Source: Candidatus Iainarchaeum sp. (lineage in GTDB: Archaea > Iainarchaeota > Iainarchaeia > Iainarchaeales > JAZDFD01). From it: a stretch of 19,612 nucleotides of DNA. Of this stretch, positions 3,373 through 11,307 are shown one piece after another. The stretch covers positions 1 through 19,612 of the forward strand of contig JAZDFD010000007.1 of the NCBI GenBank assembly GCA_043808155.1, in the 5' to 3' direction. Position numbers and translations under genes: made by a program. The notes beneath the pieces were generated by a model. That model was not told the DNA's origin and did no database searches. It worked only from the letters and a program-made list of their open reading frames with translations. Positions within the stretch are counted from its first letter, which is position 1. Every line of letters starts with the position of its first letter.

Positions 3373-4581
3373 ATGGAAAGTAATGTAAAGAGCATTTTTG
3401 AACAGGAATTAAAGCGGAAATCTGTTTTCAAGGATAGAAATCTAATAAATCCCCATTATATCCCACAAGTTCTTCCATTTCGTGAATCCCAAATTCAGGT
3501 AATTGGCTCAATGCTTGCTGTTACAATCTCTGGAAAAAAACCAAATAACATTTTCATTTACGGAACAACTGGTTCAGGAAAAACCTCTGTAACAAAACAT
3601 GTTCTGAATGAACTAATCAGTTTTGCAAAAGAAAAAAATGCATATGTTGACGGAGTATATGTGAACTGCAGAAATCACAACTCAAAATACAGGACACTAA
3701 TAAAATGTGTAAAAGAATTCTATCCTGAACAAAATTTTCTTGGATTCTCAGTGGGTTTCATTTATGATAAACTTTTAGATTATGCAAACACAGGCAAACA
3801 GGTAATAATTGTGCTTGATGAAATTGATAAAATAAAAGACATTGATGAATTAGTTTATTCACTCGTACGTGCAAATGACGAACTCCCAAAAGGGTCAATC
3901 ACACTGATAGGCATTTCTAATAATCTCTTGTTTAAAGACAAGTTAGACAAAAGAAGCAAAAGTTCATTATGTCAGCATGAAATGATTTTCCCACCATATA
4001 ATGCTGATGAACTTCAGGAAATTCTCACTCAAAGAGTAAAACTTGCATTTAACGAAAATGTAGTAACAGAGTCTGCAATAAATTTAGCATCTGCTTATGC
4101 TGCAAAAGAATCAGGTGATGCAAGAACTGCAATAATGCTGCTTCTGAAAGCAGGGGAACTTTCAGACAGGAAAAACATTGATAAAGTAACTGATTTGGAA
4201 GTCGAAAAAGCAAGAAAAAAAGTAGAGGAAGAAATAACATTCAATATGATTTCATCTCTTCCAAAACAACAACAGTTAGTTCTTTACACAATTGCATGTT
4301 TAACTGTAGACAAAAAGGGCACCAGAAAAATTGGAAGTGAATACGAAACTGTTCTCTTTTCAGGCGAAATTTATGATGAGTACACAATAGTCGCAAAAAA
4401 ATTAAATGAAAATGTCGTAAGTTCACGATGGTATAGGGAATACATTTCCGAATTAGAAATGTACGGACTGATTATAACAACTGCCTCGGGAAAAGGAATC
4501 AGAGGTTCAACAAGATTAATAAAATTAGGTTTTGATGCAAAGAAAATAAAATCTGCTTTAGAAACTGAACTTTCAAATTAA
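3373..4581 (+). CDS. cdc6: Orc1/Cdc6 replication initiator (AAA+ ATPase plus winged helix)
   Basis: Walker A GTTGSGKT, YVNC, Walker B VLDEID, FPPYNADEL, GDAR sensor, and C-terminal ELEMYGLI...GKGIRGSTR wHTH. Confidence 0.96.
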   Translation: MESNVKSIFEQELKRKSVFKDRNLINPHYIPQVLPFRESQIQVIGSMLAVTISGKKPNNIFIYGTTGSGKTSVTKHVLNELISFAKEKNAYVDGVYVNCRNHNSKYRTLIKCVKEFYPEQNFLGFSVGFIYDKLLDYANTGKQVIIVLDEIDKIKDIDELVYSLVRANDELPKGSITLIGISNNLLFKDKLDKRSKSSLCQHEMIFPPYNADELQEILTQRVKLAFNENVVTESAINLASAYAAKESGDARTAIMLLLKAGELSDRKNIDKVTDLEVEKARKKVEEEITFNMISSLPKQQQLVLYTIACLTVDKKGTRKIGSEYETVLFSGEIYDEYTIVAKKLNENVVSSRWYREYISELEMYGLIITTASGKGIRGSTRLIKLGFDAKKIKSALETELSN

Positions 4582-4601: not shown

Positions 4602-7600
4602 CTAAACAAACTCTAATAGACTCTTCTGTTTATCGTCTTTTGTAATATTTGTCTCATCGACATACCCTGCAAATATTGAATCTATCTCATCAGAGATCAA
4701 ATCAATTCTTTGTTTCAAATAGTCTCCTAATTCATAATCATAAATCATCTTTCTTGCAATCTCAAGATATTTTCTTACTGATCCCTGTGCAATTGTAAGA
4801 ATTATTTTATCTTTTCCGCATTTAGTACACTTTCCATTCAGCGGAATACGCCGGTATTTTGTATTGCAGTTAGTGCATCTGAAAGTCTGCCTTGAGAATG
4901 CACGTGCGTTTCCTATAATATCTGGGAAGAAATGTGTTGCAAGTACTCTTTCCAATGCATCTTTACTGTCAACCGCACTTATTGAATTTTGCAGTTCTGC
5001 CTGCGCTTTCATTTTGCCTTCCATTGTTGTGAGCTGTACATATCTCGATATTGAAGGTCCATCATCAAACGCATTTGTTTCGTGAGTATAACCAAGGCCA
5101 CTGTATTGTTTTTTATCATCTAATCTGTTTTTTACAAACTCAAGCCCAGAATCATCTGCCTTATAAAATTTCTCTGCTTTTTCATAAAATTCAAGCGGAT
5201 AGTCAAAACATGTTTCCATAAGATGAACTTCCTCATCAATTTCTGTTGGATTAAGTGCAACTGTAAAAACTAATGGTGCATCCATTCTGCCACCACGTGA
5301 ACTTGGTAAATAACTCTGTGAAAAATTAACCAATCCATCCATCAGCAGCATTATTGAATCCTGATCTCCATCAATGTTTCTTCTTTTAGTTTGATGAAAA
5401 TAAGGGTGTGCGAAACAAACTCTTGATTTTGTAAACCCAATCACTCTGCCAATAATTCCTGCAGATGTGTGCGGTGCAAGTCCCAAAAAAAGCTCGTCAA
5501 TAAGTTCTTCCCGAGAAGACATATTAAACACAGGGGGCAGTTTGTAAAATCTTTCCATTAATTCATCCATGAACTGAGTTACTGAAACAAAAAAGTCACC
5601 TGCTTTATCATGTATTATCATATCCTGCGGAAAAATTTCCAGCATTTGCTCATCACTTTCAATTGGATTTCCATGTATATCTTTCACATAACCAAGTTTT
5701 TTTACTGCTTCAACACTAAGTTTAATTTCTTTTGGTTTAAAGTGTGTAAGAGGCGCATTAATCAGTTCATATCTTATTGTTCCGTCTCTGAAAATATGTA
5801 CATTATGTCTTGCTCTAATAATTCCTTTTTCTAATGGTTCACATATTTTATCTGCGTTTATGATTCCTTTAACACCTTTTACAAGTTCCGGCATTCTGAC
5901 ACCAAGATTTTCTTCAGCATGTGAAATTATTTCTGAAAGATCAATTTGTCTTTTAGAAAAATGAGATATGTCTGTTCCGCATTTCGGACATTTCTTTTCA
6001 TTACTTTTGATTTTGCATTTTGGACAGCTTCCGACTAAAACAGTTCTCTCTCCGCATTCCAAACACCAAGAACCATAATTTATTTTTCCGCATTTCGGAC
6101 ATTTGAATTCCGCAATCTCTATGTCTAATTTTGTGTTTTTTTCGTCTATTTTTGACATTGCTTTATTTATCGAACGTGTATTTGTGCCCCATAATCCAAT
6201 AGGAAATAAAACATTAGGATTACCAATCATTTTTCTCGGTCTTGATGCTTCAGGCCTTCCCATTCTTGCGCCAATCCAAGTTCCAGCTTTATCTCTTATT
6301 TCAAGACCTGAAATTTTGCTCAATACCTGATGAATATTTTTAGATTCCAAATCTTCTGCACTTAGTTTTCCTTTTCCTTTCAAAACACCAAATGTTTTCA
6401 GAAGAGGGTAAGCATATTCTTCGTCAATAACAATTTTTTCATTTTCAACTGAATGTGGCAATCCAATATTTTCAAAAATTTCTTTTATCTCTTCATTAGT
6501 GTCAATTTCAATTCCAACAATTTTTGAATGTTCCTCAATTTTTCTGCCCTCATTTAATGCAGAAATAATTTCTTTTAAATCTTCTAATTTAATCGCACTG
6601 TAATAATGCAAAAATTTTGGATTTAAAGGTACGCTGTATTTTTCAGAAAGTTCAACTGCTTCATATGGTTCTGTTTTTTCAGGATTTTTAATCAGTTCCT
6701 TAATTCTCTCAGTCTTATGTTCAATTTTTTTCTCAATTTCCTTTGCCCACCATTCCTCACAGTAACCTGCAGGAACTAAAGAATGTGCTGAGTAATTAAA
6801 ATCCCCTACTGCCACTAATAAATCGCCAATGAACAGAATTTTTTCGAAATCATTTCTCATTCCAATTGCTTCTTCTGCTGTTTTTATTTTCACAACATTT
6901 CCATTTTTTAATTTAACAATCGGACCTTCAATTGAATCAACAGCAGCCATACCTGCAGCTTTCCCTGGACGTTCAACTTTAATTTGTGTTCCAACAGCAA
7001 TAAACTCATCTAATGCATACATTGTTGCGGGACTGCATCCTTTGCCCATTATGCCCATGTTACGCCCTCTGCCATATCTCAATCGGAATCCCCCAATTCG
7101 TGAAGGATATGCAAAAATAGGCCTTCCCGCAGCTGTACCTATCAAATATTTTTCATTTGGTTTAATTCCTTTTTCCTGAGAATCTGATTTCCCAACCTTG
7201 ATAATATCTTCAAGCCAGTCCCAGTCAAGTTTAAGCATTCTGCTGAACTTTAGAATTTTTTTTGCTTTTAGTGCAATTCCGTCACTCACAACAAGGCACA
7301 TTCCACCGCGAACTTTATTAGTTGGAATTCTTTTCAGGTCTCTGTTTAATGAAACTTCCCGATCTTCTGTTGGTTCGCCATTTATGCAAACCGGACATCC
7401 GCGTACAATTTTTTTGATTTCATCTTCTGAAATTTTATATTGACGCGAGTAAATTTCCTCGTAAATTAAAACTTCTTCAGCATATCTTTTAACTTCATCT
7501 TCTGTTGGTTTATATCTGTCTAATCCCATTAGTACGCGTGCGTAATCACCAAGAATTAATGGTAAAACTGCAGATGTTCCCCCTGCTGCTCTGATAGGAC

Positions 7601-8051
7601 CTGCATAATAAATGTCAATATATTTACTTCCATCGGGATTTGAATTAATTTCAACTCTTGGCACACCATCAAGAGGTGCAACAACAACTCCCTCTGTGTT
7701 CAGAACAAGAGCAGTTTTAATTGCCTGCGTAATTCTTTCGGCATCGTCTGGAATTTTATACCATTCCTGCTCAATTAGTTCTTTAAAAATTTTAAAAATT
7801 GTAAGTTCTCTGTTATTTTTCATTTCTTTCATTACTGTTCTGTAACGTGCCCCAATTCCCGGAGGTCCGATAATTGTTTCAGTTCTGTCTGCCAAATCCA
7901 GTGCAGGTGTTGTTTCAATATCTGTGCTTATGTCTAATCCTTTTTCTTTTGCTTCTTTTGCAATATTGTAATTGTCAGACATTTTTTCTGCAAGATGTTC
8001 ATAATATTTTTTTACAGAGTCTTCTGCTTTTACATTGACTTTGAAATTCAT
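4602..8051 (-). CDS. polC: DNA polymerase D large subunit DP2 (no intein)
   Basis: YYAGPIRAAGGT, GGFRLRYGRGRN, IGARMGRPE, FRDGTIRY, GLAPHTSAG, KRRNIDGDQD, RGGRMDAPL and CxxC zinc fingers. Start placed at ATG 8051 (MNFKV) after SD-like GAGGCG; the track start at 8090 lies inside the IS left end. Confidence 0.97.
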   Translation of the reverse strand: MNFKVNVKAEDSVKKYYEHLAEKMSDNYNIAKEAKEKGLDISTDIETTPALDLADRTETIIGPPGIGARYRTVMKEMKNNRELTIFKIFKELIEQEWYKIPDDAERITQAIKTALVLNTEGVVVAPLDGVPRVEINSNPDGSKYIDIYYAGPIRAAGGTSAVLPLILGDYARVLMGLDRYKPTEDEVKRYAEEVLIYEEIYSRQYKISEDEIKKIVRGCPVCINGEPTEDREVSLNRDLKRIPTNKVRGGMCLVVSDGIALKAKKILKFSRMLKLDWDWLEDIIKVGKSDSQEKGIKPNEKYLIGTAAGRPIFAYPSRIGGFRLRYGRGRNMGIMGKGCSPATMYALDEFIAVGTQIKVERPGKAAGMAAVDSIEGPIVKLKNGNVVKIKTAEEAIGMRNDFEKILFIGDLLVAVGDFNYSAHSLVPAGYCEEWWAKEIEKKIEHKTERIKELIKNPEKTEPYEAVELSEKYSVPLNPKFLHYYSAIKLEDLKEIISALNEGRKIEEHSKIVGIEIDTNEEIKEIFENIGLPHSVENEKIVIDEEYAYPLLKTFGVLKGKGKLSAEDLESKNIHQVLSKISGLEIRDKAGTWIGARMGRPEASRPRKMIGNPNVLFPIGLWGTNTRSINKAMSKIDEKNTKLDIEIAEFKCPKCGKINYGSWCLECGERTVLVGSCPKCKIKSNEKKCPKCGTDISHFSKRQIDLSEIISHAEENLGVRMPELVKGVKGIINADKICEPLEKGIIRARHNVHIFRDGTIRYELINAPLTHFKPKEIKLSVEAVKKLGYVKDIHGNPIESDEQMLEIFPQDMIIHDKAGDFFVSVTQFMDELMERFYKLPPVFNMSSREELIDELFLGLAPHTSAGIIGRVIGFTKSRVCFAHPYFHQTKRRNIDGDQDSIMLLMDGLVNFSQSYLPSSRGGRMDAPLVFTVALNPTEIDEEVHLMETCFDYPLEFYEKAEKFYKADDSGLEFVKNRLDDKKQYSGLGYTHETNAFDDGPSISRYVQLTTMEGKMKAQAELQNSISAVDSKDALERVLATHFFPDIIGNARAFSRQTFRCTNCNTKYRRIPLNGKCTKCGKDKIILTIAQGSVRKYLEIARKMIYDYELGDYLKQRIDLISDEIDSIFAGYVDETNITKDDKQKSLLEFV

Positions 8052-8151
8052 CAAAACCGCCTCAAGGATCTTGTGGTTCTCAGGAACCACGAGACATTAA
8101 GCGCTTTCAGCGCTTCACATACCCACAAATTTATTCGTGGGATGAATTGAG

Positions 8152-8165
8152 GCAAACCTTTAAAG
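8152..8165 (+). promoter_or_regulatory. Putative BRE/TATA promoter for tnpB
   Basis: GCAAACCTTTAAAG, with the TATA ~22-28 nt upstream of the in-frame TTG at 8187, which is leaderless-mRNA spacing. Confidence 0.45.
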
Positions 8166-8168
8166 TGA

Positions 8169-9413
8169 TTGCCTCGTATAAATATATTGGTTGATAGTTT
8201 GAAAAGAGCAATACAATTACAAATTGCTGATTTAACAAAATCAAAGACAAATGCTTTAAAAGAATTTAGCCAACAGGCTGTAAGCCTTGCTAATCTCTTA
8301 CTATCCAAAAGAAAAACTAAGCGATTGATGGACTTACATAACGCCACATATTTAACAAGCAAGAAAAACACCCCTTTTAATTCCCAAATTATCTGTGATA
8401 TTGAAAGAACTGTTGTTATATGTAAAGGAAAATATCTCAGAGCAATTACTGTCAAATTTAATGTTCCTCGCAACTGCAAGACTTTTGAAACAAAAGCCAA
8501 TTATTTTATTAGACTTGGAATGTATCCAAGAAAACGCTTTGCTGTTCCAATTAAACAGAATAGGAATTATCAAAGGTTTAAGTCCCTTCTTGAAAATGGT
8601 TGGATTTGTAAAACTTATGGGCTTACTTCCAATCTTGAAATAGTTGCATATCTTTCTAAAGAAGAAATTGAACTGCCTCAACGAAAAAACATTCTTGGTA
8701 TTGACATCAATAGCAAATGCTTTGCTGTTTCTGTTGTTTCTCCTGCTGGAAAAGTATTGAAGCAGACCTATTTTGGAAAGGACATCTGGGTAAAACGAAA
8801 AAAAATTTTTGAAAGAAAGGAAAGACTGCAATCTTTTGCTGATAGAGGAAGTAATCGAGCAAAAAAAAGCCTTGAAAGACTTAAACATAGGGAGCATAAC
8901 TTTGTTAAAAATCGGCTTGGCGAAGTTGTTAGAGATATTACTGAGATGGCTATTGAATATAATGCAGATATTGCTATTGAAAATCTTAAACGCTTTTCTC
9001 CAAAAGGAAAGCGATTTAACAAAGAAGTTATGCGTATCCCTTTCTATTCTTTTAAACAACTTCTTGAATCCCGATGTTTTGATAAAAATATTATGCTTAA
9101 TGTTGTTGATGCCTACCATACGAGTAAATGGTGTAGCCACTGCGGTGCTGTTGGCAAAGGGCATTCCAGCAATTATTCCTTGTTTAAATGCAAAGAATGC
9201 GGTCAAATAGTCAATAGTGATAGGAAGGCAAGCCTTGCTGTCGCTGTCAAATCCCTTTTGGAGCGGAAAAATCAAGCTATCAACCATAACTTGTTCTTCC
9301 AGTTTACCAATAGGCAAGTCCCTGTAAACGGGCTTCTGCGTCAAAATGACGAGTTTGTTTCTAATAGTGCTGTGCATCTTGATTCATCTCCGATTGAAAG
9401 CCCACTACTTTAG
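8169..9413 (+). CDS. tnpB: TnpB RNA-guided RuvC endonuclease (Cas12f/Cas14-related)
   Basis: RuvC-I LGIDIN, RuvC-II IAIENL, zinc finger CSHC...CKEC and RuvC-III VNSDRKAS; all three acidic catalytic positions are present. The true start may be TTG 8187. Confidence 0.93.
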   Translation: MPRINILVDSLKRAIQLQIADLTKSKTNALKEFSQQAVSLANLLLSKRKTKRLMDLHNATYLTSKKNTPFNSQIICDIERTVVICKGKYLRAITVKFNVPRNCKTFETKANYFIRLGMYPRKRFAVPIKQNRNYQRFKSLLENGWICKTYGLTSNLEIVAYLSKEEIELPQRKNILGIDINSKCFAVSVVSPAGKVLKQTYFGKDIWVKRKKIFERKERLQSFADRGSNRAKKSLERLKHREHNFVKNRLGEVVRDITEMAIEYNADIAIENLKRFSPKGKRFNKEVMRIPFYSFKQLLESRCFDKNIMLNVVDAYHTSKWCSHCGAVGKGHSSNYSLFKCKECGQIVNSDRKASLAVAVKSLLERKNQAINHNLFFQFTNRQVPVNGLLRQNDEFVSNSAVHLDSSPIESPLL

Positions 9414-9445
9414 TCGTGGGTTGTTTACCCTGTCACCTGATTCAA
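9280..9445 (+). ncRNA. Putative TnpB omegaRNA (reRNA) scaffold plus flanking guide
   Basis: Stem AAGTCC/GGGCTT (9316-9335) whose loop GTAAAC is complementary to terminal GTTTAC (9423-9428). Also hairpin CGTCA-AAA-TGACG (9339-9351) and the right-end hairpin 9401-9420. Both ends are approximate. Confidence 0.65.
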
Positions 9446-10942
9446 ATCATTTTTGTAAAAATATTTTTCAGTAAGTTTTCTGGTTTTCAAATCAATTACT
9501 GGCACAATTCCCGGAGTTGGTGTATGTCCTAATTTTGCTTGAAATGCAGTTTTTGCCTGGAATGTTCCTGAACAAATTGCACTACAGCCCCTATAAGTTC
9601 CATAACCATTGTGGTGCATCTCACCCATGAAAAAGAAATCAGGCACCTCCCTTATCAGCATGAAATTTTTCTTTTCAGGAACATATGGCTGGCGCGTCCC
9701 ATAAGCAGGCATTAAATCACGCCTTTTAAGAATTTCAATCATTCCCTCATGAGGTCTGCTTAAATCAAGGAAATTAACATTGCTGTGAAGATCGTGCAAA
9801 CATCCTCCGTGATACATTAAAACATTAAAACCCTCAATTTCCACTCTGCCAGGCGAACCAATAAGATGTACATTTTTCATTTCATAAAGTTCCGGAACTA
9901 ATGTTTTTGGAAGTGCAGGCTGAGGGTCTGCATGCCTTACTGCATCATGATTTCCCGGAATCATTACAATTTCAATATGTTCCGGAATCTGTTTAATATA
10001 CTCAACAAATTGTTCATATTGTTTAGTTATACTTTTGACACTCAGTTCATCATACTGGTTTGGATAAATCCCAATTCCATCAACATTGTCACCAGTCATC
10101 ACAATATACTTCACTTTACCAGCTGCTTCTCTTTCCTTTTCAGAAGCAATTTCACAATTTATCCATGCTAAAAATTTATTAAATGCATTTTCCAGATGAA
10201 GTTTACTTCCGACGTGCAAATCAGTAAGCCCGACAATTGAAATATCCTCATTAATTGTTTTCATTTCACGTATTGGCAAATCAGGTAAATAAATTTCATT
10301 TGCAAGAACAAGTTCATCACTTAGTTTAGTTGCTTTAATACCAATTACATCATCAAGTATAATTCTATCACTTGCTTTCTGCATTGCATGATCATTTTTT
10401 GAAAAAACAACAATGCATTTCCCATCCAAATCTTCAAGCTCTACTGCCGTATGCCCGTTTTTAGTTACCCATTTTTTTGAAATCATTCCAATTAAATCAA
10501 TTTTCTCTTTATCAGGAATTGATTTTATTTTTGAAATTTCTCTTGGTGCAAGAGCATGCCTCTTGTTCAGTTCATTTTTCAGAAATTCGAATTTGCTCTG
10601 GAACATATTCAAAAAATCTTTCACACTTCCGCCACAATTACTCTGCCCAGTAACATCCCATTCTGAAATAATTTTTAAATTAGAATCATAGTCTTTTGCT
10701 TTTGGTTTAAAATGTGATTTTACTGCAACAACTTCTTTCTCAACAGAATCCAGTTTTGTTTTCAATACTTTATTCTTTAAATTTTCAACACTTACTGTGA
10801 ACTCATTCGCATTTGCAATTTCATCTATGATTTCTTTGAAATCATCTCTGTCTTTAAGAAGTTTTAATGCCCCTGGCTCTACAAAAAGATTTTTCTCATT
10901 TGCATAACTTACAATTGCCTGTTCTTTTTCATTATGTGCCAT
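9425..10942 (-). CDS. polB: DNA polymerase D small subunit DP1 (3'-5' proofreading exonuclease, calcineurin-like phosphoesterase fold)
   Basis: OB-fold region (ELEDLDG...DDVIGI), TDLHVGS, GDNVDGIGIYPNQ, PGNHDAVRHADPQP, YHG, GTFQAKTAFQ and PTPGIVP. The stop codon overlaps the IS right end. Confidence 0.96.
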   Translation of the reverse strand: MAHNEKEQAIVSYANEKNLFVEPGALKLLKDRDDFKEIIDEIANANEFTVSVENLKNKVLKTKLDSVEKEVVAVKSHFKPKAKDYDSNLKIISEWDVTGQSNCGGSVKDFLNMFQSKFEFLKNELNKRHALAPREISKIKSIPDKEKIDLIGMISKKWVTKNGHTAVELEDLDGKCIVVFSKNDHAMQKASDRIILDDVIGIKATKLSDELVLANEIYLPDLPIREMKTINEDISIVGLTDLHVGSKLHLENAFNKFLAWINCEIASEKEREAAGKVKYIVMTGDNVDGIGIYPNQYDELSVKSITKQYEQFVEYIKQIPEHIEIVMIPGNHDAVRHADPQPALPKTLVPELYEMKNVHLIGSPGRVEIEGFNVLMYHGGCLHDLHSNVNFLDLSRPHEGMIEILKRRDLMPAYGTRQPYVPEKKNFMLIREVPDFFFMGEMHHNGYGTYRGCSAICSGTFQAKTAFQAKLGHTPTPGIVPVIDLKTRKLTEKYFYKNDLNQVTG

Positions 10943-10950
10943 TACGAACC

Positions 10951-11223
10951 CTATTTCAGTTTTTCTTTAACTGACTCAAGTTCGGATATAATGTTCCATA
11001 TTTCAGTTCTTGTATGTGCAGGCATATTTATGTCATTGCTCACATCATCAAGAAGATAAATTGCTTCTGAAAATTTCAAACCTGTTGCATCTTTAAGGTC
11101 AGAAATTTTGTTTTTTGCTTCATCAATTGCATTTCTTATGTTTCTTGGAACAGACCTGTCTTCTATGACTTCTTCCATCATTTCGGCAAGTTCTAGGATT
11201 TGTTTTTTCATTTCTTTATCCAT
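10951..11223 (-). CDS. UPF0147 family protein
   Basis: DRSVPRNIR and LDDVSNDINMPAHTRTEIWNIISELE motifs. ATG 11223 follows a G-rich SD. Confidence 0.9.
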   Translation of the reverse strand: MDKEMKKQILELAEMMEEVIEDRSVPRNIRNAIDEAKNKISDLKDATGLKFSEAIYLLDDVSNDINMPAHTRTEIWNIISELESVKEKLK

Positions 11224-11307
11224 ATTCTTACCCCCCACAAAATAGCGTTAAACGGAAAAATCAATTAAGATCCCTTTAACTCGAGTATATTTAATATAGA
11301 AAGTAAG

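Follow-up and report, generated by a model that had tools for sequence, protein, structure and literature searches.

How does a transposable element come to lie between the two genes of a replicative DNA polymerase, where does it begin and end, and what did its arrival change? The question is raised by a contig of Candidatus Iainarchaeum sp. (JAZDFD010000007.1), a stretch of 19,612 nucleotides that was analysed whole and is called the window here. PolD is regarded as an essential replicative polymerase in those archaea where this has been tested. The genes for its small (DP1) and large (DP2) subunits ordinarily share a 4-base overlap; here, in an archaeon with a small genome, a 1.4-kb element that carries tnpB lies antisense between them. 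A preliminary description, made from the sequence of the window alone, had recognized an IS608-like tnpB insertion sequence (IS) between DP1 and DP2, and this identification is borne out. The left end proposed there, together with the consequences drawn from it for DP1, has to be revised. We find that the element occupies positions 8052-9428, directly 3' of the pentanucleotide TTCAT, inside what was formerly an ATGA overlap of the two polymerase genes. The principal features are as follows.

8052-9428, plus strand: the whole tnpB-only IS200/IS605-type element, 1377 bp, delimited by empty-site joints and by ends conserved in related copies
8047-8051, plus strand: the target or transposon-adjacent motif (TAM) TTCAT, whose complement ATGAA forms the first five bases of DP2
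8199-9413, plus strand: tnpB, intact, 404 codons from TTG 8199, with a Pfam match
4602-8051, minus strand: DP2, PolD large subunit, 1149 aa, intact, with three PolC_DP2 domains (Pfam)
9425-10942, minus strand: DP1, PolD small subunit, 505 aa, full length, with the Pfam domains DNA_pol_E_B and Metallophos

The tnpB gene, which runs antisense to both polymerase genes, is taken as 8199-9413 because the ATG of its homologues aligns with TTG 8199; its TAG stop (9411-9413) sits in the loop of the right-end hairpin. A genome-wide search showed both the element and TnpB to be single-copy in this genome, a 1.08-Mb metagenome-assembled genome (MAG) of 35 contigs that is 88% complete.

Empty sites and the ends of the element

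Unoccupied versions of the site are found in metagenomes. In each of four runs out of four, drawn from three studies, one contig joins position 8051 directly to position 9429 and skips the 1377 bases between them. The shorter sides of these joints measure 36, 174, 103 and 125 nt, the joints carry a one-base ambiguity ("skips 1377, ends CA..AC"), and the shares in the four runs, no RNA run being among those listed, are small (0.07-0.12). A fifth empty site comes from L050 (loci are designated by L and a number), the only relative among the 29 pattern matches in a metagenome scan for DP1, whose DP1 protein is 90% identical to that of the window. Positions 2124-2149 of this locus read AATCAGGTGAAAGGATGAATTTTAAA: DP1 ends in ...NQVKG with a TGA stop that overlaps the DP2 ATG (DP2 begins MNFK...), and this overlap is preceded by AGGTGA. 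The tail of DP1 is equally long in L050 and in the window. The ancestral DP1/DP2 overlap is ATGA, and not one DP1 residue has been lost.

Related copies allowed the ends of the element to be read independently of these joints. TnpB homologues at 76, 72, 66, 43 and 40% identity are present in five other genomes of the order, and a sixth has one partial match, giving seven genomes with a match among the 196 of the order, the host itself included. Nine further loci come from MAGs labelled Thermoplasmatales, Altiarchaeota, Thaumarchaeota, Micrarchaeota and Aenigmatarchaeota, and two more from one of those other-phylum genomes; widening the genome search from the order to the phylum yielded zero additional copies. 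The flanks differ from copy to copy. Two short copies that keep both ends, L046 (2925-3602, 678 bp) and L048 (2904-3291, 388 bp), are internally deleted derivatives of the element, akin to miniature inverted-repeat transposable elements.

At the right end the following features were delineated.

9397-9400, plus strand: right-end guide AAAG, the same in 10 of 11 copies
9401-9420, plus strand: right-end hairpin, arms 9401-9408 and 9413-9420, loop TTTA, with compensatory changes in alignment columns 177-198
9425-9428, plus strand: right cleavage motif TTAC and end of the element, which ends in TTAC in all 11 aligned copies
9429-9448, plus strand: right flank, comprising the last DP1 codons; the predicted target-matching guide of the omega-RNA, after the TnpB model in passages of a preprint (10.1101/2023.03.14.532601)

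A right end in TTTAC or, in two cases, ATTAC was located in all 15 copies, 14 of them paired by scan and the fifteenth (L038) read from the printed sequence. It consists of a motif of the GAAAG type (two copies have GAAAT or GAAAA), the hairpin and T(A/T)GTTTAC, with GTACATTAC in L042 and L056 and GGTGGTTTAC in L045. The distance from motif to end is 32-33 nt in the 14 scanned copies. From the first base after TTTAC the flanks are unrelated, and because they diverge directly past this motif the end is placed at 9428. The preliminary description had read the same right end in the window (AAAG, hairpin, TTAC at 9425-9428), and the related copies confirm it; its features exceed what chance would produce. 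Its observation that the complement of TTAC supplies the present stop of DP1 is confirmed as well: this complement provides the last base of the DP1 Gly505 codon followed by the TAA stop (complement of 9425-9427).

The left end is more elaborate.

8052-8069, plus strand: first 18 bases of the left end, common to the window and L034, which have unrelated flanks
8059-8065, plus strand: 5' arm of the outer left-end helix, pairing with 8147-8153
8070-8120, plus strand: 51-base insert of the window copy only, a gap in 11 of the 12 aligned left ends
8122-8141, plus strand: inner left-end hairpin, arms 8122-8129 and 8134-8141, presumed to bind TnpA and like the right-end hairpin
8147-8153, plus strand: 3' arm of the outer left-end helix, overlapping the conserved GAATT motif at 8144-8148

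Left ends are readable in 12 copies, that of the window and 11 others, and are preceded by TCAT in eight, TCAC in three and CCAT in one. The spacing from this target to the GAATT motif (GAGTC in L042) is 39-43 nt and exactly 41 nt in 9 of the 12; the spacing in the window fits once its 51 extra bases are set aside. In L034, the nearest copy, 17 of the 18 bases of 8052-8069 are identical, as counted from the printed alignment. Because this segment is common to the two copies despite their unrelated flanks, it is assigned to the element and not to DP1. Covariation across the 12 copies points the same way. The outer helix has 7 pairs, 5 of them changed on both sides, and 88.6% of its cells are paired; the inner hairpin has 8 pairs, 7 of them changed on both sides. 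Taken together, 12 of the 15 pairs change on both sides and 84.4% of cells pair, versus 61.4% in shuffled alignments, none of 500 of which reaches the observed value; sliding the partners as a control leaves 37-47% of cells paired. The 51-base insert folds into two hairpins (8070-8093 and 8099-8115), is unique within the genome and among the loci compared with it, and splits the left-end guide tetranucleotide. Judged from the aligned copies, the break at 8069/8070 is one edge of this internal insert.

Two observations on left ends stand apart. A second inverted repeat, GAGGCAA/TTGCCTC, pairs window positions 8149-8155 with 8169-8175; its 5' arm overlaps the 3' arm of the outer helix, so that the sequence just upstream of tnpB could pair in either of two mutually exclusive ways. 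A shorter GAGGC/GCCTC form of the repeat is kept in L034. In L057, a sequence resembling a structured RNA gene lies on the opposite strand beside a decayed left end (approximately 1280-1400, in element orientation).

In IS608 the first base of the guide pairs with the second base of the target, the second with the first, and the fourth with the fourth. With guides read by anchoring on the conserved AAGG and GAAAG motifs, all three pairs are of the Watson-Crick type in 8 of the 12 left ends, where guide and target covary (GGAA accompanies CCAT, and in two copies GAAG accompanies TCAC); the same holds for 10 of 11 right ends, where AAAG faces TTAC. The guide of L034, GATA, predicts TCxT, which agrees with TCAT at 8048-8051 of the window. 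The preliminary description had taken CATA (8118-8121) as the left guide; this tetranucleotide does precede the hairpin, but the partial fit noted for it reflects a guide split by the 51-base insert, the true target being TCAT at 8048-8051. It is on account of this insert that the window's left guide makes two of the three pairs whichever way it is read.

These data bear directly on the left boundary at 8069/8070 that the preliminary description had proposed. The element would then span 8070-9428, five DP1 codons (SLRRF) would have been removed, DP1 and DP2 would once have overlapped by TGATG, and the ribosome-binding site of DP2 would have lain inside the missing codons. Such a reading is invited by a DP1 frame that stays open through 8069-8054 up to a TGA touching the DP2 ATG, and by a real discontinuity at 8069/8070 in the window copy. 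The frame, however, is open because the 18 bases of 8052-8069 amount to six stop-free codons, and the discontinuity is the edge of the internal insert. The segment 8052-8069 recurs in L034 as the left end of the element and is part of a covarying helix; the bases taken for the codons LRR and for the DP2 ribosome-binding site form the 5' arm of the outer helix at the left end. The proposed join of 8069 to 9429 is arithmetically correct, but no contig contains it; all four join 8051 to 9429, and the copies and empty sites alike put the boundary at 8051/8052. The DP1 of L050 stops on the DP2 ATG, the overlap is ATGA there and in the empty-site contigs, and relatives free of the IS end DP1 at ...V(T/K)G, an ending of the kind that the preliminary description had itself named as contrary to its proposal. 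We give the boundary at 8069/8070 practically no credence. What survives of the argument is that DP1 and DP2 were once coupled by an overlapping stop and start, in a form other than that proposed; and the case illustrates that frame restoration alone is an unsafe basis for setting an IS boundary.

TnpB, mobilization and the history of the insertion

The tnpB product matches the Cas12f1-like TNB domain of Pfam (PF07282, E = 2.9e-12), while matches to RuvC_1 and OrfB_IS605 (PF18516 and PF01385) fall below the curated cut-offs. Among solved TnpB/Cas12f structures its best match in the PDB is the TnpB of entry 9nzp (E = 1.2e-15), and the alignment spans the RuvC and zinc-finger region; read by eye, it contains the motifs GIDIN, AIENL and NSDR and two CxxC pairs. 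With a RuvC-like nuclease domain and a zinc-finger/TNB domain both present, the protein is, by its sequence, an ordinary member of the TnpB family. The 3' part of the element appears to be structured.

9249-9428, plus strand: structured 3' region, a candidate omega-RNA scaffold together with the right end (RNAalifold, 11 copies)

Over these last 180 nt, which are partly coding, RNAalifold reports 23 of 38 pairs as compensatory. Rfam models searched over 7900-9600 gave only two matches, both at chance level (E = 0.39 and 0.42). By analogy with characterized systems, TnpB and an RNA from the 3' region would cut vacant sites consisting of TTCAT and the sequence from 9429 onward, which would favour retention of the element.

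The element has subterminal hairpins at both ends, no terminal inverted repeats, insertion 3' of a motif without target-site duplication, and pairing of guides with cleavage sites, all of which are hallmarks of IS200/IS605; a further hallmark, an element-encoded TnpA, is absent, the interval from the left end to tnpB being too short to hold a tnpA gene. We class the element as a new member of IS200/IS605 that carries tnpB alone and is at best non-autonomous. TnpA genes are present in four of the five other host genomes, and a cognate one was identified in none of the genomes examined. The element would have been mobilized as single-stranded DNA by a Y1 transposase acting in trans.

Some of these transposase genes merit a note of their own. 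In genome G001 a Y1 transposase gene of another IS200/IS605 type (G001:C2:123174-123524) lies about 600 nt upstream of DP1 (G001:C2:124129-125598). This genome has five Y1 transposase genes and G095 has two full ones; none carries the element's end motifs in the loci scanned.

Several points weigh against the explanation favoured here, namely that an IS200/IS605 element integrated directly 3' of TTCAT into the DP1/DP2 overlap. The empty-site contigs come from relatives 88-95% identical to the window (about 5-12% different), from strains other than that of the window. Evidence for the occupied state is confined to the assembly of the window: among the 32 contig pieces listed, with 87 others beyond the listing, none bridges either 8051/8052 or 9428/9429 in occupied form. 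Four of the 12 left ends, that of the window among them, make only two of the three guide pairs. Conservation of the 3' region partly reflects coding sequence, and no Rfam family matched this region. A search of the 88% complete genome for a Y1 transposase (PF01797) found none, and at the TnpA genes of the other hosts the family's end motifs are absent in the five of six fetched loci that were scanned (L064 was left out). Finally, the expression of DP2 after insertion, and its route, are a proposal only.

Because the guide is interrupted by the 51-base insert and a Y1 transposase was not found in the genome, the window copy is suggested to be no longer excisable, the insert having probably impaired or abolished excision; a counterpoint is that variable spacing between motif and guide is tolerated, according to passages of a preprint (10.1101/2023.03.14.532601).

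The direction of the event has to be considered, since an empty site alone gives none. The element could be ancestral at the site and its relatives could have lost it, as IS200/IS605 elements excise precisely and without a scar, according to the same preprint (10.1101/2023.03.14.532601). Five empty sites, four in contigs and one in L050, nevertheless lack the element, and none of the 29 DP1 loci of the order is among the TnpB matches. The gap of 657-855 nt seen in three of those 29 loci is of a different nature. The element is moreover patchy within the order, and its flanks differ for each copy. Since the contigs of the relatives differ from the window, they show the ancestral state rather than excision. 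We regard ancestral presence followed by loss as very improbable.

It could also be asked whether the arrangement is an assembly artefact that fused an IS of some other organism in the sample to the PolD contig. A MAG in 35 contigs leaves room for such a chimera, as do the presence of related elements in several phyla and the want of a contig with an occupied junction among the pieces listed. Yet both junctions fall exactly at the cleavage positions of the family, and skipping exactly this length restores an ATGA overlap like that of L050. The joined sequences share a single base, which would probably be too little for a k-mer chimera, and contigs of run X1 show no differences from the window either inside the element (8768-8918) or in DP1 (9486-9821). 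A chimera thus seems extremely improbable. Integration of the element directly 3' of TTCAT, so as to occupy 8052-9428 within the former DP1/DP2 ATGA overlap, is highly probable as a whole explanation; within it, the direct observations comprise both boundaries, the empty site, the structures of the ends and the rule by which guide and target pair.

Consequences for the polymerase genes

The element entered the last DP1 codon after its second base. With the end of the element reading ...GTTTAC, and its complement contributing G followed by TAA, this codon changed from GGA to GGG, both for glycine, and the stop from TGA to TAA. DP1 keeps all 505 residues and DP2 its ATG, and neither protein is altered. 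The genes themselves now lie 1377 bp apart with their overlap coupling lost, and the native AGGTGA site has ceased to precede DP2. This native Shine-Dalgarno sequence, the complement of 9433-9438, matches the anti-Shine-Dalgarno sequence of the genome's 16S rRNA, whose 3' end reads GGATCACCTCCT.

The left end places a GAGGCG motif (complement of 8058-8063) 6 nt before the DP2 ATG, and DP2 might now be translated from it. Transcription of DP2 would come either from read-through antisense to tnpB, or from AT-rich boxes or a promoter in the left end. The left end may in this way provide the displaced gene with a Shine-Dalgarno-like motif and perhaps also with an outward promoter. With both open reading frames (ORFs) intact and DP2 single-copy in the genome, where one family-B polymerase is also present, the locus offers a natural experiment on how strongly expression of an essential heteromeric enzyme relies on overlap coupling, and it raises the question whether the end of an IS can stand in for a ribosome-binding site or a promoter. 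A literature search covering listings and the passages of one preprint found no IS in a PolD operon and no IS200/IS605 element at ATGA overlaps.

Among relatives of the order, DP1 and DP2 are on one locus in 28 of 29 cases. Overlaps of 4-17 nt were scored by script in 13 of these 28, some of the values of -17 being miscalls of the start codon. Other arrangements were observed in a few relatives. The three with a DP1-DP2 gap instead of an overlap are L005 (1572-2470), L028 (2970-3862) and L026 (726-1471); the gaps of L005 and L028 each contain an ORF on the same strand, about 280-320 codons long, whose product is Lys- and Arg-rich and shows no TnpB signature by eye. In two others the DP1 match is split inside one long open frame (G025:C44:1249-4095 and G005:C18:429-1757), which looks like an intein-type insertion; in G025 this frame has 972 aa and the halves are about 1.35 kb apart. 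The DP1 of G017 comes in two pieces, with one TGA.

The wider neighbourhood of the polymerase genes contains a Cdc6/Orc1 gene (window 3373-4581), which adjoins DP2 on the opposite strand, and a UPF0147 gene (10951-11238) directly upstream of DP1. Given these neighbours, the window may be close to a replication origin.

Recurrence at gene junctions and relation to known systems

The fit between element and gene ends seen at PolD recurs in related copies. The TAA of the right end terminates a long ORF of the opposite strand in 6 of the 14 copies whose right flank could be assessed (L044, with a flank of only 2 nt, was left out of this count); in the remaining eight the same frame stays open over 0-23 codons only. 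In 7 of the 14 copies with a left end, an ORF has the CAT of the target as its start codon. The genes concerned are as follows.

Stop supplied: DP1 (window); Nop domain (L036); NAD kinase (L040); amino-acid permease (L048); ETF (L056); a 110-codon ORF with no Pfam match (L045)
Start retained: DP2 (window); RMMBL (L035); fibrillarin (L036); JAB (L040); homoserine dehydrogenase (L042); ETF-alpha (L056); an ORF in L034

The Pfam domain starts within the first 12 residues of the fibrillarin, JAB, homoserine dehydrogenase and ETF-alpha genes. The sole Pfam match of the L035 ORF is near its C-terminus, and the L034 ORF comprises 57 codons, runs off its contig and has no Pfam match. In L043 and L048 an ATG lies 8 nt from the insertion point; L037, L041, L044 and L046 have no adjacent gene start, and L057 is ambiguous. 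A stop and a start coincide in 4 of the 12 copies assessable on both sides, the junctions besides PolD being Nop5/fibrillarin, NAD kinase/JAB and ETF/ETF-alpha. In all four of these cases the change of the third base of the last codon to G is synonymous.

As background we used the 19588 sites in the window's genome that read (A/G)TGA, the complement of the target, under a crude ORF-based gene model, by which 2896 of them (14.8%) lie outside ORF interiors. The shares of the site classes are as follows.

Stop/start junction (both): 0.2% of all sites, 1.45% of sites outside ORF interiors
Site coincides with a stop: 1.1% of all sites, 7.3% of sites outside ORF interiors
Site coincides with a start: 1.9% of all sites, 12.8% of sites outside ORF interiors

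Binomial tails against the null restricted to sites outside ORF interiors are P = 2e-5 for both, 2.7e-4 for stops and 8.4e-4 for starts, or 2.3e-3 (stops) and 5.2e-3 (starts) when only Pfam-backed cases are counted; this null represents one genome and assumes every intergenic site to be tolerated, and the sample of copies is small. The enrichment at junctions is real, and it could be caused by survivorship in gene-dense genomes or by adaptation of the element.

We lean towards survivorship alone, under which only insertions that spare both ORFs persist in compact genomes and no adaptation of the element is needed. A mere 14.8% of (A/G)TGA sites lie outside ORF interiors; and replacement of the stop is automatic, since TCAT on the left and TTAC on the right are similar as cleavage motifs and their complements both carry a stop in the same register. 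Junctions are over-represented, however, even against the null limited to sites outside ORF interiors, itself a crude one. It is thus conceivable, though we think it rather unlikely, that this lineage has adapted to sit at the stop/start junctions of operons as a protein-sparing strategy and not just through survivorship, each insertion exchanging one stop codon for another and keeping the ATG of the following gene. If so, the element could colonize essential, tightly coupled operons (PolD, Nop5-fibrillarin, ETF) in very compact genomes. The recurrence in itself suggests how IS200/IS605 elements in general may persist where genes are densely packed.

IS608 of Helicobacter pylori is said, from the work of Barabas and colleagues in 2008, to be the structural paradigm of IS200/IS605. 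Like IS608, the element described here has subterminal hairpins at both ends without terminal inverted repeats, a guide of 4 nt on the 5' side of each hairpin that pairs with the cleavage tetranucleotide, and insertion 3' of a fixed motif without target duplication; the AAAG/TTAC pair itself is the same. It differs in that this pair is at the right end and not, as in IS608, at the left, that its target is TTCAT, that tnpA is missing, and that an extra covarying outer helix encloses the left hairpin. Elements carrying only tnpB are presumably those labelled as the IS1341 type. The present element resembles such tnpB-only IS200/IS605 elements in having tnpB alone between its ends, which the deleted copies L046 and L048 both keep; it stands apart from them in that a cognate TnpA was found in none of the genomes examined.

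A close parallel is provided by the ISGst elements of Geobacillus stearothermophilus. As portrayed in passages of a preprint by Meers et al., they have a TAM beside the left end and a transposon-encoded motif at the right one, each of which covaries with DNA guides located in the ends (10.1101/2023.03.14.532601). The same passages give TTCAT as the TAM of ISGst5 and TTCAC as a right-end motif of ISGst2, and describe tolerance of flexible spacing between motif and guide as well as cutting of the vacant site by an RNA-guided nuclease (10.1101/2023.03.14.532601). Those elements are bacterial, and the one with TTCAT encodes IscB, whereas the activity of the archaeal TnpB is predicted here by analogy.

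At the level of the host genes, parts of two sources describe overlapping stop/start pairs as coupled by termination-reinitiation (PMC6728339, PMC10666635), and the ATGA overlap of DP1 and DP2, subunits of one heteromeric complex, belongs to this class. Unlike such pairs, the polymerase genes of the window have had their overlap replaced by a 1377-bp spacer, a separation that the same partial accounts indicate to be incompatible with coupling (PMC6728339, PMC10666635).

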